From assembly GCF_003334355.1 (NCBI RefSeq), contig NZ_QOWP01000008.1: a stretch of DNA of 64,000 bases. One strand, written 5' to 3'. Source of the stretch: Escherichia coli. GTDB taxonomy: Bacteria; Pseudomonadota; Gammaproteobacteria; Enterobacterales; Enterobacteriaceae. The first letter of the stretch is position 1. Each line of letters begins with the position of its first letter. The notes below the pieces were generated by a model. It was not told the origin of the DNA. It searched no databases and worked only from the letters and a program-made list of their open reading frames with translations. The translations under genes and the position numbers were made by a program. Shown piece after piece: positions 1-63,534 of the stretch.

Positions 1-59
1 TTTTTCGTCTTGCGACGTTAAGAATCCGTATCTTCGAGTGCCCACACAGATTGTCTGAT

Positions 60-290
60 AAATTGTTAAAGAGCAGTGCCGCTTCGCTTTTTCTCAGCGG
101 CGCGGGGTGTGCATAATACGCTTTCCCGCTACAGAGTCAAGCATTTATTTTTGCTTTCTCTGCCGGAGTTCTCAGGAGAACCCCGCTGACCCGGCGGCGT
201 GTTTGCCGTTGTTCCGTGTCAGTGGTGGCGCATTATAGGGAGTTATTCCGGCCTGACAAGAGGAAATTTAAAATAATTTTCTGACCGCGC
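60..290 (-). promoter_or_regulatory. rRNA operon tandem promoters P1 and P2 with UP element and boxA antiterminator, transcribing leftward out of the window (rrnC-type given the yieP neighbour)
   Basis: Reverse complement of ~221-290 reads gcgcggtcagaaaattattttaaatttcctcTTGTCAggccggaataactcccTATAATgcgccaccact, which is the classical rrn P1 with its UP element. Reverse complement of ~103-140 gives TTGACT-17-TATTAT (P2). Reverse complement of ~63-75 is tgctctttaacaa (boxA). The 16S gene body is not in the window. Confidence 0.85.
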
Positions 291-411
291 ATTTTTTCAG
301 CAAAAGCCCCGTTAATGTGCCATAAAACAAGCAATTTGCCGTTTTTGCAACCGTAATCACACTTCCTGGTGGCATACTAAGGAGGAATAAAAAGAAAAAG
401 GAAGATTAGTA

Positions 412-1104
412 ATGCCTTTAAGCGCACAACAGTTAGCTGCACAGAAAAACCTTTCGTATGTTCTGGCTGAGAAGCTGGCGCAACGCATCTTAAAAGGTGA
501 ATATGAACCCGGCACCATTTTGCCTGGTGAGATTGAGCTGGGCGAGCAATTTGGAGTGAGTCGTACAGCGGTACGCGAAGCGGTCAAAACGTTAACGGCA
601 AAAGGGATGGTTTTACCGCGACCGCGAATTGGTACCCGGGTCATGCCACAATCAAACTGGAATTTTCTTGATCAGGAATTGCTTACCTGGTGGATGACAG
701 AAGAGAACTTTCATCAGGTCATCGATCACTTTCTGGTTATGCGTATCTGTCTGGAGCCGCAAGCTTGCCTACTGGCTGCAACGGTTGGCACCGCGGAACA
801 GAAGGCGCATCTCAATACGTTAATGGCCGAAATGGCGGCATTAAAAGAGAACTTTCGCCGTGAACGCTGGATCGAAGTAGATATGGCCTGGCATGAGCAT
901 ATCTATGAAATGAGCGCCAATCCGTTTTTGACCTCATTCGCCTCGCTATTCCATTCGGTTTATCACACTTACTTCACGTCAATTACCAGCGACACAGTGA
1001 TAAAGCTGGATCTGCACCAGGCGATTGTCGATGCGATTGTCCAAAGCGATGGCGACGCGGCATTTAAAGCTTGTCAGGCGCTGCTACGCTCACCTGATAC
1101 GTGA
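412..1104 (+). CDS. yieP: GntR-family transcriptional regulator YieP
   Basis: ORF-track 230 aa, ATG start with AGGAGG upstream; N-terminal wHTH GntR-type motif (GVSRTAVREAV); sequence recognised as E. coli YieP. Confidence 0.9.
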   Translation: MPLSAQQLAAQKNLSYVLAEKLAQRILKGEYEPGTILPGEIELGEQFGVSRTAVREAVKTLTAKGMVLPRPRIGTRVMPQSNWNFLDQELLTWWMTEENFHQVIDHFLVMRICLEPQACLLAATVGTAEQKAHLNTLMAEMAALKENFRRERWIEVDMAWHEHIYEMSANPFLTSFASLFHSVYHTYFTSITSDTVIKLDLHQAIVDAIVQSDGDAAFKACQALLRSPDT

Positions 1105-1126: not shown

Positions 1127-2554
1127 ATGAGCGATAAAAAGAAGCGCAGTATGGCGGGTTTGCCGTGGATCGCGGCGATGGCCTTCTTCATGCAGGCACT
1201 TGATGCCACTATTCTGAATACCGCCTTACCCGCAATCGCTCATAGCCTTAATCGTTCTCCTCTCGCGATGCAATCAGCCATCATCAGTTATACGCTGACG
1301 GTGGCGATGCTTATTCCGGTAAGCGGATGGCTAGCCGATCGCTTCGGTACGCGTCGCATTTTTACCCTTGCCGTGAGTCTGTTCACATTGGGTTCTCTGG
1401 CCTGCGCACTTTCTAATTCGCTACCACAGCTGGTTGTCTTCCGGGTTATTCAGGGGATAGGCGGCGCAATGATGATGCCTGTTGCTCGGCTGGCCTTACT
1501 GCGCGCTTATCCTCGTAATGAACTTCTTCCAGTATTGAATTTTGTCGCCATGCCGGGTCTGGTGGGGCCAATTTTAGGCCCCGTTCTTGGCGGCGTGCTG
1601 GTCACCTGGGCAACCTGGCACTGGATATTTTTAATCAATATCCCCATAGGTATTGCAGGCCTTCTTTACGCGCGCAAACATATGCCCAATTTCACCACCG
1701 CACGACGCAGATTCGATATCACTGGCTTTTTGTTGTTTGGCCTCAGCCTTGTTCTCTTCTCAAGCGGAATAGAGCTATTCGGGGAAAAGATTGTCGCCAG
1801 CTGGATTGCCTTGACGGTAATTGTCACCAGCATCGGGTTACTGCTTCTCTATATTCTCCATGCACGACGCACGCCAAACCCATTAATTTCATTAGATTTA
1901 TTTAAAACCCGCACTTTCTCGATCGGTATCGTAGGCAATATTGCAACCCGTCTGGGGACCGGCTGTGTACCGTTCCTTATGCCATTGATGTTACAGGTAG
2001 GATTTGGTTATCAGGCGTTTATTGCCGGCTGTATGATGGCGCCGACAGCGTTAGGTTCCATTATTGCAAAATCGATGGTTACCCAAGTCTTACGTCGTCT
2101 GGGCTATCGCCATACATTAGTGGGGATCACGGTGATTATTGGGCTAATGATCGCTCAGTTCTCTTTGCAATCACCGGCAATGGCGATATGGATGCTGATC
2201 TTGCCGTTGTTTATATTAGGGATGGCTATGTCGACGCAGTTTACCGCGATGAATACCATCACACTTGCCGATCTGACCGATGACAACGCCAGCAGCGGTA
2301 ACAGTGTTCTGGCGGTCACGCAGCAACTGTCTATCAGTTTAGGCGTTGCTGTAAGTGCGGCCGTCCTTCGCGTTTATGAAGGAATGGAAGGCACAACGAC
2401 TGTCGAACAATTCCACTATACGTTTATCACAATGGGCATTATTACTGTTGCTTCAGCAGCAATGTTCATGCTTCTGAAAACAACCGATGGTAATAATTTG
2501 ATCAAAAGACAGCGTAAATCTAAGCCGAACCGCGTTCCATCAGAATCGGAGTAA
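1127..2554 (+). CDS. hsrA: MFS transporter HsrA (YieO)
   Basis: 475 aa, multiple hydrophobic TM segments, MFS signature region; recognised as HsrA; position between yieP and rbsR. Confidence 0.9.
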
Positions 2555-15744: not shown

Positions 15745-16000
15745 TCTACTGTGGATAACTCTGTCAGGAAGCTTGGATCAACCGGTAGTTATCCAAAGAA
15801 CAACCGTTGTTCAGTTTTTGAGTTGTGTATAACCCCTCATTCTGATCCCAGCTTATACGGTCCAGGATCACCGATCATTCACAGTTAATGATCCTTTCCA
15901 GGTTGTTGATCTTAAAAGCAGGATCCTTGTTATCCACAGGGCAGTGCGATCCTAATAAGAGATCACAATAGAACAGATCTCTAAATAAATAGATCTTCTT
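15745..16000. other. oriC: Chromosomal replication origin oriC (DnaA boxes R4 to R1, AT-rich 13-mer DNA unwinding element, dense GATC sites)
   Basis: Seen in sequence: tgtggataa (R4) at ~15750-15758, ttatccaca (R1) at ~15930-15938 and ttgtgtataa (R2-like) at ~15823-15832. The three 13-mers GATCTCTTATTAG, GATCTGTTCTATT and GATCTATTTATTT occur as reverse complements at ~15952-15995. The segment is densely populated with GATC sites. Confidence 0.92.
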
Positions 16001-26238: not shown

Positions 26239-26536
26239 ACGCGTGATCCGTCCTGAAGAGCGTTCACATAGATCCTGCTGATATAAAACACCCCTGTTTT
26301 CCCGTTTATTCATTGATCGAAATAAGAGCAAAAACATCCACCTGACGCTTAAATGAAGGTACTGCCTTAATTTTCTGCAGACAAAAGGCGTGACGATGGT
26401 CGAAAATGGCACTTTCGTCAGCGGGGATAATCCGTTATTGAACAATTTATCCTCTGTCCATTTCACGATGAAAAAAATGTAGTTTTTTCAAGGTGAAGCG
26501 GTTTAAATTCGTTCTCAAATTACAGTCAGGACGCGT

Positions 26537-57389: not shown

Positions 57390-58793
57390 GTGTCACTTTC
57401 GCTTTGGCAGCAGTGTCTTGCCCGATTGCAGGATGAGTTACCAGCCACAGAATTCAGTATGTGGATACGCCCATTGCAGGCGGAACTGAGCGATAACACG
57501 CTGGCCCTGTACGCGCCAAACCGTTTTGTCCTCGATTGGGTACGGGACAAGTACCTTAATAATATCAATGGACTGCTAACCAGTTTCTGCGGAGCGGATG
57601 CCCCACAGCTACGTTTTGAAGTCGGCACCAAACCGGTGACGCAAACGCCACAAGCGGCAGTGACGAGCAACGTCGCGGCCCCTGCACAGGTGGCGCAAAC
57701 GCAGCCGCAACGTGCTGCGCCTTCTACGCGCTCAGGTTGGGATAACGTCCCGGCCCCGGCAGAACCGACCTATCGTTCTAACGTAAACGTCAAACACACG
57801 TTTGATAACTTCGTTGAAGGTAAATCTAACCAACTGGCGCGCGCGGCGGCTCGCCAGGTGGCGGATAACCCTGGCGGTGCCTATAACCCGTTGTTCCTTT
57901 ATGGCGGCACGGGTCTGGGTAAAACTCACCTGCTGCATGCGGTGGGTAACGGCATTATGGCGCGCAAGCCGAATGCCAAAGTGGTTTATATGCACTCCGA
58001 GCGCTTTGTTCAGGACATGGTTAAAGCCCTGCAAAACAACGCGATCGAAGAGTTTAAACGCTACTACCGTTCCGTAGATGCACTGCTGATCGACGATATT
58101 CAGTTTTTTGCTAATAAAGAACGATCTCAGGAAGAGTTTTTCCACACCTTCAACGCCCTGCTGGAAGGTAATCAACAGATCATTCTCACCTCGGATCGCT
58201 ATCCGAAAGAGATCAACGGCGTTGAGGATCGTTTGAAATCCCGCTTCGGTTGGGGACTGACTGTGGCGATCGAACCGCCAGAGCTGGAAACCCGTGTGGC
58301 GATCCTGATGAAAAAGGCCGACGAAAACGACATTCGTTTGCCGGGCGAAGTGGCGTTCTTTATCGCCAAGCGTCTACGATCTAACGTACGTGAGCTGGAA
58401 GGGGCGCTGAACCGCGTCATTGCCAATGCCAACTTTACTGGACGGGCGATCACCATCGACTTCGTGCGTGAGGCGCTGCGCGACTTGCTGGCATTGCAGG
58501 AAAAACTGGTCACCATCGACAATATTCAGAAGACGGTGGCGGAGTACTACAAGATCAAAGTCGCGGATCTCCTTTCCAAGCGTCGATCCCGCTCGGTGGC
58601 GCGTCCGCGCCAGATGGCGATGGCGCTGGCGAAAGAGCTGACTAACCACAGTCTGCCGGAGATTGGCGATGCGTTTGGTGGCCGTGACCACACGACGGTG
58701 CTTCATGCCTGCCGTAAGATCGAGCAGTTGCGTGAAGAGAGCCACGATATCAAAGAAGATTTTTCAAATTTAATCAGAACATTGTCATCGTAA
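57390..58793 (+). CDS. dnaA: Chromosomal replication initiator DnaA
   Basis: ORF-track 471 aa trimmed to the GTG start at [14 protein letters not shown] (467 aa); AAA+ Walker [12 protein letters not shown]; C-terminal DNA-binding domain. Confidence 0.95.
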
Positions 58794-63435: not shown

Positions 63436-63534
63436 GCCTGATGCGCTACGCTTATCAGGCCTACGAAAATCTTGCAATGTATTGAATTTTCATGATTTTG
63501 TAGGCCGGATAAGGCGTTCACGCCGCATCCGGCA
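63436..63534. repeat. Two REP elements (BIME-like) downstream of gyrB
   Basis: gcctgatgcgctacgcttatcaggcctac and gtaggccggataaggcgttcacgccgcatccggca, followed by a hairpin plus T-run terminator (gggcggagatcatctccgccctttttatttc, ~63551-63581). Confidence 0.8.

Follow-up and report, generated by a model that had tools for sequence, protein, structure and literature searches.

The yieP–rrnC intergenic control region of Escherichia coli: divergent promoters at a conserved spacing

The rrnC control region and its divergent neighbour yieP

The first 411 nucleotides of the window, by which we mean the whole stretch of 64,000 nucleotides of E. coli DNA that was analysed (contig NZ_QOWP01000008.1, assembly GCF_003334355.1), are the yieP–rrnC intergenic control region. 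This identification is confirmed, and the region was already known. Comparison with rrnC of K-12 MG1655 revealed two differing bases in the 411 nt, at positions 85 and 407, and experiments performed in K-12 can thus be transferred directly. All 5,426 complete E. coli genomes searched by megablast with positions 1-1200 contain the region; since every rrn operon carries a copy of the promoter part, the median number of matching places in a genome is 7. In one genome with 100% identity over 1-1200, the 16S rRNA gene starts 69 nt past window position 1 and 292 nt from the start of the P1 promoter. The order of the operon in that genome is 16S, tRNA-Glu, 23S, 5S, tRNA-Asp and tRNA-Trp, followed by hdfR, while yieP, hsrA (under the PGAP name mdtD), rbsR and rbsK lie on the other side. 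The gene order around 16S therefore identifies the operon as rrnC. A preliminary description, made from the sequence, had recognised at the window edge a fragment of an rrn operon with P1, P2 and boxA, and had predicted a 16S gene less than about 100 bp beyond the left edge; both predictions were borne out, with all the elements present on the minus strand.

Among the rrn operons, rrnC lies nearest to oriC, at about 16 kb, and is alone in not co-localising with the rest (PMC5110994). Two adjacent oriC-type 13-mers are found at 15967-15995 of the window, a position that fits the distance of about 16 kb between rrnC and oriC. A search of Rfam yielded a sub-threshold match only, to ‘Ysr197’ over 53..304 (83 bits, where the gathering score is 167), which simply reflects the conservation of the rrn promoter and leader.

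When positions 1-700 were scanned for consensus promoters, exactly two sigma-70-like sites were detected, both on the minus strand, compared with 0.6 in shuffled sequences. The first is rrnC P1, whose core (223..259, minus strand) has a near-consensus −35 (TTGTCA, 259..254) and −10 (TATAAT, 237..232) separated by a suboptimal 16-bp spacer, with 11 of 12 matches in the scan. Downstream of the −10 lies a G+C-rich discriminator, GCGCCACC (231..224), and the transcription start, A223, comes after it, 9 nt past the −10; the start was taken from identity to rrnB P1. Upstream of the core, between −40 and −60, an A/T-rich UP element (263..283, minus strand) is identical to that of rrnB P1. The second site is rrnC P2 (113..140, minus strand), with −35 TTGACT (140..135), a 16-bp spacer and −10 TATTAT (118..113), which scored 10 of 12 matches. 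Its start was inferred at about C106 from the distance to the −10, and would be 117 bp away from that of P1, in line with the second sigma-70 promoter expected some 120 bp downstream of an rrn P1.

The segment from the inferred P2 start to the window edge (1..106, minus strand) matches the rrnB leader and corresponds to the rrnC leader RNA. It carries, after P2 and in the order boxB-boxA-boxC, the signals of the rrn antitermination leader. The boxB hairpin (78..101; GCCGCU...AGCGGC) is present in the minimum-free-energy fold of 106..38, although the z-score of that fold (−1.3) is not significant on its own. Both boxA, TGCTCTTTAACAA (63..75), where the antitermination complex is assembled, and boxC, TGTGTGGG (41..48), could be read directly and are the same as in rrnB. 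When the sequence was anchored on the P1 −10 and discriminator, so that A223 is the P1 start, it proved identical to K-12 rrnB from −68 to −1, and 221 of 222 bases matched from +1 to +222. Because this identity is nearly complete, every experimentally defined feature of rrnB P1/P2 applies to rrnC. Beyond −68, however, the two sequences are unrelated. Their upstream neighbours differ too: rrnB P1 is preceded by the 3′ end of the co-directional murI gene, and rrnC P1 by the divergent yieP gene.

The coding sequence of yieP (412..1104, plus strand) is supported by the ORF list and by the RefSeq annotation, and encodes a regulator of 230 amino acids of the GntR/FadR family; hsrA lies 22 nt downstream. 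The distance between the yieP ATG and the P1 −35, previously estimated at about 150 bp, is 153 bp. By 5′ RACE, transcription of yieP has been found to begin 27 nt ahead of the ATG (Bianco et al., J Bacteriol 2024, PMC11340327), and a leader of 27 nt sets the start at G385. In K-12 NC_000913.3, whose coordinates equal 3941739 minus the window position, the starts of P1 and of yieP fall at 3941516 and 3941354, respectively. That leader (385..411, plus strand) contains a Shine-Dalgarno sequence, AAGGAAG, at 398-404, and is the target of the small RNA FnrS, which represses translation by pairing (PMC11340327). The same authors described positive autoregulation of yieP and a YieP ChIP signal upstream of the gene (PMC11340327).

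In front of the mapped start we find an extended −10, TGGCATACT (370..378, plus strand), composed of TG at 370-371 and CATACT at 373-378. The element ends 6 nt before the published start and places the TG at −15/−14, which is the correct distance for an extended −10. The hexamer is non-consensus, with C at positions 1 and 5, and the discriminator, AAGGAG, is A/G-rich. The −35 zone (350-355, ACCGTA) is poor, and no usable −35 was found. Two candidate −35 hexamers, TTGCAA (345-350) and TTGCCG (336-341), were rejected on spacing as they lie 22 bp and 31 bp from the −10. A candidate minus-strand promoter, TTGCAA-17-TTTTAT (350..322), was also rejected: the A that is essential at position 2 of a −10 is here a conserved T.

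The yieP promoter is akin to extended −10 (TGn) promoters without a −35 in its TG, in the placement of its −10 and in having no recognisable −35; it differs from them in its non-consensus −10 and in being activated by its own product. Promoters that combine an extended −10 with a weak −35 have been reported to be sensitive to 6S RNA. In stationary phase, yieP transcripts increased 2.9-fold in a microarray analysis of a mutant lacking 6S RNA (PMC2848244), a rise that fits a promoter of this type.

Conservation of the divergent layout

Species-representative genomes were scanned with the YieP protein, and 80 loci with 78-98% identity were retrieved from Escherichia, Citrobacter, Salmonella, Enterobacter, Leclercia, Klebsiella, Raoultella, Kosakonia, Trabulsiella, Yokenella, Pluralibacter, Atlantibacter and others. 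In draft assemblies, yieP was almost always located 100-600 nt from a contig end, as expected for a gene beside a repeated rRNA operon. In 57 loci the −10 and discriminator motif of P1 could be recognised, and in every one of them the P1 start lies at a distance of 183-190 nt from the yieP ATG (188 nt intervene in E. coli); among the loci whose upstream sequence extends to about 190 nt or more, L055 alone lacks the motif. All ten loci with enough sequence harboured the 16S 5′ motif, 461-496 nt upstream of yieP. On the yieP side, TGGCATA was detected at most 80 nt from the ATG in 79 of the 80 loci, and the remaining locus has 15 nt of upstream sequence. The back-to-back layout of the rrnC and yieP promoters is therefore real and conserved across enteric bacteria. 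The spacing is conserved as well: the two starts are 162 bp apart in E. coli, and the yieP −10 (TGGCATA) and the P1 start are separated by 151-153 nt in all 57 loci that have both.

Conservation along the region was measured as majority-base frequency in an alignment of 52 sequences, with a neutral value of 0.52 obtained from four-fold degenerate sites of yieP. The P1 core (224-259, minus strand) scored 0.90 and the UP element (262-283, minus strand) 0.81. Further upstream of P1, values of 0.86, 0.71 and 0.81 were found for three segments that are discussed below as candidate Fis sites (287-301, 318-332 and 338-352), the last of them being as conserved as the UP element. Lower values were found in the spacer at 302-317 (0.59) and in the spacer of the yieP promoter at 353-369 (0.65). 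The extended −10 of yieP, TGGCATACT (370-378, plus strand), reached 1.00, and each of its nine positions is kept in at least 51 of the 52 sequences.

What keeps the spacing so constant admits more than one explanation. The one we favour, and hold to be probably right, is that the region consists of the anatomy described above and of two independently regulated promoters that are packed tightly. The distance from the yieP −10 to P1 would then be kept to ±1 bp because almost every intervening segment is individually constrained. Tight packing is also usual among the rrn operons of K-12, in which the end or start of the neighbouring gene lies 76-330 nt from P1: the ends of murI, hemG and gmhB lie 76-85 nt before the P1 start, and that of clpB 151 nt before it. 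Two observations speak against mere packing, namely the ±1 bp spacing itself and a conserved block (335-352) that coincides with −40 of the yieP promoter; together, they could reflect a shared protein or a shared architecture.

Divergent protein genes upstream of an rrn P1 are also found in K-12 at rrnD (yrdA) and rrnE (purH). The purH gene starts 330 nt from rrnE P1, a wider gap than that between yieP and rrnC, whereas yrdA starts 188 nt from the rrnD P1 start, exactly as yieP does from rrnC. Homology between the rrnC and rrnD upstream regions was examined as a cause of the equal gaps and discarded: none was found beyond about −60 (z = 1.8). On the basis of this comparison, the two gaps of 188 nt appear to be equal by coincidence.

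Another explanation invokes DNA topology. In the twin-domain model, the very heavy transcription from rrnC P1/P2 would generate negative supercoils that help to open the yieP promoter, which lacks a −35, and yieP output would track rrnC activity without any shared protein. Coupling by supercoiling has been demonstrated for ilvY-ilvC and for leu-500. In ilvY-ilvC, as in yieP/rrnC, two divergent promoters lie within 200 bp of each other and one of the pair is very active; however, the likeness is one of geometry alone, while in ilvY-ilvC the coupling itself has been demonstrated. The short distance between the divergent starts, its conservation across the family and the non-consensus −10 of yieP (CATACT) are all in keeping with such a mechanism. 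Against it, our literature search found no experimental or expression support, no coupling has been reported for the divergent pairs rrnD/yrdA and rrnE/purH, and Fis bound between the promoters could act as a topological barrier. We consider coupling by supercoiling to be quite unlikely, and tight packing of two independent promoters is retained as the better explanation of the spacing.

Candidate Fis sites between the two promoters

The preliminary description had placed Fis sites at 290-380 and had suggested that the yieP promoter shares space with them. For their detection, we used an approximate 15-bp matrix of our own, built on the published consensus, with G and C at −7 and +7, Y/R at −4/−3 and an A/T centre. 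When the matrix was run on rrnB, its top three matches were located at −143, −71 and −102, which are exactly the known Fis sites of that operon.

The best match in rrnC, with a score of 8.4, is a predicted Fis site (site I, 287-301, GCTGAAAAAATGCGC on the minus strand) centred at 294, a position that corresponds to −71 relative to P1 and to −91 relative to the start of yieP. A match at −71 is thus common to rrnB and rrnC, although the distal half of the site differs between them, and in six of the seven K-12 rrn operons, with the exception of rrnE, −71 is among the top two matches. Site I reached a score of 5 or more in all 52 orthologous sequences, and its invariant positions are G287, T293-T297, C298 and C301. 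At the level of the motif, therefore, rrnC P1 has the Fis site centred around −71 that is typical of rrn P1 promoters.

Further upstream, where rrnB has its Fis sites at −102 and −143, rrnC shows matches at −102 and −122, both of them weak and partly conserved. The first (318..332; conserved core CCATAAAA at 320-327) is centred at 325, which is −102 when counted from P1 and −60 when counted from the start of yieP. It scored 5.0 in E. coli, with a median of 3.7 among orthologues, and its end positions are not conserved; whether it is a Fis site is uncertain from its sequence. The second lies within a conserved block, ATTTGCCGTTTTTGCAACC (335..352), and consists of a Fis-like 15-mer running from G338 to C352 and centred at 345 (−122 relative to P1, −40 relative to the start of yieP). 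Its matrix score is only 3.2, and the orthologue median has the same value; however, the two ends of the 15-mer, G338 and C352, are each kept in 51 of the 52 sequences. By analogy with rrnB, a site was also sought at −143 (around 366), and was discarded as no matrix match was found there and conservation is near neutral.

The scores call for caution. In the A/T-rich upstream DNA of 1-411, the matrix maximum of 8.4 is not significant, as the 95th percentile of the shuffles is 9.5 (mean maximum, 6.7), and scores around 3.2 are common in shuffled A/T-rich DNA. A strict Fis consensus, GNNYRWWWWWYRNNC, gave no match in 1-411, and 9 matches in the whole window against 10 expected; this consensus is too strict, and site I departs from it by one mismatch. 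Because single-sequence scores fall within the range of the shuffles, the argument for Fis rests on position and conservation. Hirvonen and colleagues reportedly footprinted Fis on seven rrn P1 promoters in 2001, rrnC among them. From three to five Fis sites have been proposed per rrn promoter, and gel shifts with rrnC agree with the earlier count and are given without positions (Maeda et al. 2015, PMC4696680). Fis may occupy the sites predicted here in rrnC.

The proposed range of 290-380 had presupposed a site at −143 as in rrnB; the matches found are those at −71, −102 and −122, the last two of them weak, and there is no sign of one at −143. As for the sharing of space, the yieP core promoter (about 350-385) corresponds to −127 to −162 from P1. 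It is clear of the strong site I and overlaps the weak Fis-like block at 338-352, which extends into its −35 zone. The yieP start lies downstream of every predicted Fis site, and overlap is absent for site I and present for the weak block, so that the proposal stands in part. RNA polymerase usually covers DNA to about −55, and on the yieP promoter it would thus reach the −102 block as well. Space is therefore shared by the two promoters only in the distal upstream DNA, with the weak Fis-like blocks at −102 and −122 as candidate sites.

The block at 335-352 may bind one of several candidates: it may be a third Fis site, a site for autoactivation by YieP, or a contact for alpha-CTD. If it is bound by YieP, the site for autoactivation may lie inside the rrnC upstream region, and regulation might even run from yieP to rrnC. 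By occupying the rrnC upstream activating region, YieP would alter the access of Fis or alpha-CTD, thus providing rrnC with an operon-specific, metabolite-responsive input. The ChIP signal and the positive autoregulation described above (PMC11340327) are consistent with this possibility; any site upstream of the yieP −35 necessarily lies between −127 and about −60 of P1, and the 335-352 block begins with ATTTGC, which resembles a YieP half-site. However, the YieP motif is the palindrome atTTGTaTGAcaAAT (PMC7642389), and no match with fewer than two mismatches was found in 1-411. The best matches there have 2-3 mismatches that destroy the GT/AC core, and their number is at chance level, so that the region does not contain a YieP operator as defined by this motif. 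In addition, a cell contains only about 150-260 YieP molecules, and the literature search found no report of an effect of yieP on rRNA. Control of rrnC by YieP is, in our view, very improbable, and independent control of the two promoters is preferred here too.

Probable independent control, growth rate and possible coupling

The divergent arrangement had also raised the suggestion that yieP expression might be coupled to growth-rate control through the Fis region of rrnC P1. We find this suggestion unsupported: the literature search found no paper linking yieP expression to rrnC, Fis or growth rate. Work from the Gourse laboratory has located growth-rate control and stringent control of rrn P1 in the core promoter, where they depend on the instability of the open complex and the G+C-rich discriminator, as well as on ppGpp/DksA and the initiating NTP. 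Both the Fis sites and the UP element stimulate rrn P1 but are dispensable for control of either kind. Because growth-rate control resides in the P1 core, shared Fis sites could at most give yieP a growth-phase behaviour of the Fis type.

Such behaviour would be expected if Fis dimers bound upstream of rrnC P1 also activated the divergent yieP promoter; expression of yieP-hsrA would then rise with Fis upon nutritional upshift and in early exponential phase. The geometry is suggestive, as the predicted sites at −40, −60 and −91 from the yieP start are at typical class II or class I positions, and Fis activates proP P2 from −41. Moreover, the yieP promoter probably needs an activator as it lacks a −35, the positions −7/+7 of the Fis core at −122 (G338 and C352) are conserved at 95% or more, and the spacing is constant to ±1 bp. 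On the other hand, the matrix score at −122 (3.2) is weak compared with the mean shuffle maximum given above, Fis sites do not confer growth-rate control, and YieP itself is a known activator of the yieP promoter (PMC11340327). Expression data do not help the case for Fis either. The number of YieP copies per cell is 158 in glucose and 261 in LB, a difference in line with those of most other regulators in the same published table. In a published clustering, yieP groups with stress regulators and not with Fis, and yieP mRNA can be detected in stationary phase (PMC2848244), a phase in which Fis is absent. Activation of yieP by Fis from these sites is thus an unlikely scenario. Taken as indirect evidence on growth rate, the protein levels, the clustering and the stationary-phase data do not point to coupling.

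The interpretation that we favour remains that of two independent promoters. rrnC P1 has its near-consensus −35/−10, G+C-rich discriminator and UP element together with the predicted Fis site I at −71, and would be regulated through Fis and the UP element as well as through ppGpp/DksA and the initiating NTP. P2 follows about 117 bp downstream, and the leader is equipped with boxB-boxA-boxC antitermination signals. Transcription of yieP starts from a separate core promoter of the extended −10 type, TGGCATACT, without a usable −35, and would be under the control of YieP autoactivation and FnrS. The core promoters do not overlap, and polymerase bound at yieP would reach only into the distal portion of the DNA upstream of rrnC. 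That the two promoters are independent is our inference.

A wider reading can be contemplated, in which yieP and rrnC P1 form a conserved bidirectional module and the distal upstream DNA of rrnC, in particular 335-352, is a site shared by Fis, YieP or both. In such a module, yieP-hsrA would follow the rRNA promoters, either through Fis or through supercoiling, or else YieP would feed into rrnC a metabolic input that the other six rrn operons lack. On the evidence discussed above, we regard this reading as decidedly doubtful, and two independently regulated promoters remain our preferred explanation.

The rrn P1/P2 promoters are among the best studied in bacteria, and the element itself adds nothing new; at present, the analysis amounts to a tidy annotation rather than to a discovery. 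A small addition is the conserved geometry, to ±1 bp, between the −10 of a yieP promoter that was mapped in 2024 and the P1 start, in 57 loci from many genera of Enterobacteriaceae. A minor new detail is the conserved block at 335-352, at the very position expected for an activator of yieP and also for a distal activator of rrnC. If coupling were true, a regulator of metabolism and membrane stress, with targets yohJK, ykgE, sdaC and rydC/cfa, would be linked to ribosome synthesis, and the locus would provide an example of operon-specific regulation of an rrn operon.

Conservation and divergence of the yieP-rrnC intergenic region

The block ATTTGCCGTTTTTGCAACC, located at window positions 335-352, shows a conservation of 0.81 across Enterobacteriaceae, compared with a neutral value of 0.52 at four-fold degenerate sites of yieP. 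Its conservation equals that of the A/T-rich UP element of rrnC P1 (263-283, minus strand), and both G338 and C352 are retained in 51 of the 52 aligned sequences. The block is centred at -122 from the rrnC P1 start and at -40 from the yieP start.

A comparable divergent arrangement is found in the rrnD-yrdA region of K-12, where 188 nt lie between the start codon of yrdA and the rrnD P1 start, the same gap that separates yieP from rrnC. Homology between the two regions was not detected (z = 1.8). They have a 9-mer in common, GCATACTAA, which lies at differing distances from P1.

When the yieP-rrnC region was compared with that of K-12, a single-base difference was found at position 407, in the yieP 5′ leader and 5 nt upstream of the ATG, where the plus strand carries T instead of A. 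This position falls inside the yieP translation-initiation region, with which the FnrS small RNA has been reported to pair (PMC11340327). A second difference from K-12, at position 85, maps to the boxB hairpin loop in the rrn leader.

Atypical yieP loci

Among the 80 loci retrieved with the YieP protein, two deserve comment. The 756-bp contig NZ_JSEE01000043.1, assigned to ‘Marinomonas sp. TW1’, harbors a yieP gene 89% identical to that of E. coli, and probably represents enterobacterial contamination of the Marinomonas assembly. In DFPL01000088.1, from an Enterobacteriaceae metagenome-assembled genome, no rrn P1 -10 and discriminator motif was detected upstream of yieP. Of the loci whose sequence extends more than 200 nt beyond yieP on the upstream side, it is the sole one in which the motif was missing, and this absence may reflect either a genuine rearrangement or an artefact of metagenome assembly.

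Annotation of neighboring genes and RNAs

The next gene after yieP (1127-2554, plus strand) is named hsrA (yieO) in K-12; it ends in a convergent overlap of 35 bp (2520-2554) with rbsR, whose minus-strand reading ends at 2520. In RefSeq strain annotations, PGAP calls hsrA ‘mdtD: multidrug transporter subunit MdtD’, probably by transfer of the name of a paralogue.

A full-length Rfam match to Ysr197 (‘Yersinia sRNA 197’) was detected at 53-304 (minus strand) with 83 bits, below the family's gathering score (167). What this family models appears to be the promoter and leader region of rrn P1/P2, and not a small RNA in its own right. Minus-strand matches above the gathering score correspond to the STnc410 small RNA (26296-26453), AsdA, the antisense RNA of dnaA mRNA (57900-57980), and the ES036 small RNA (63457-63499).

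The replication origin

An adjacent pair of oriC-type A/T-rich 13-mers, GATCTGTTCTATT and GATCTATTTATTT, is found at 15967-15995 (minus strand). This position agrees with the distance of ~16 kb between rrnC and oriC described in the literature (PMC5110994), and the pair is the unwinding element of the replication origin.
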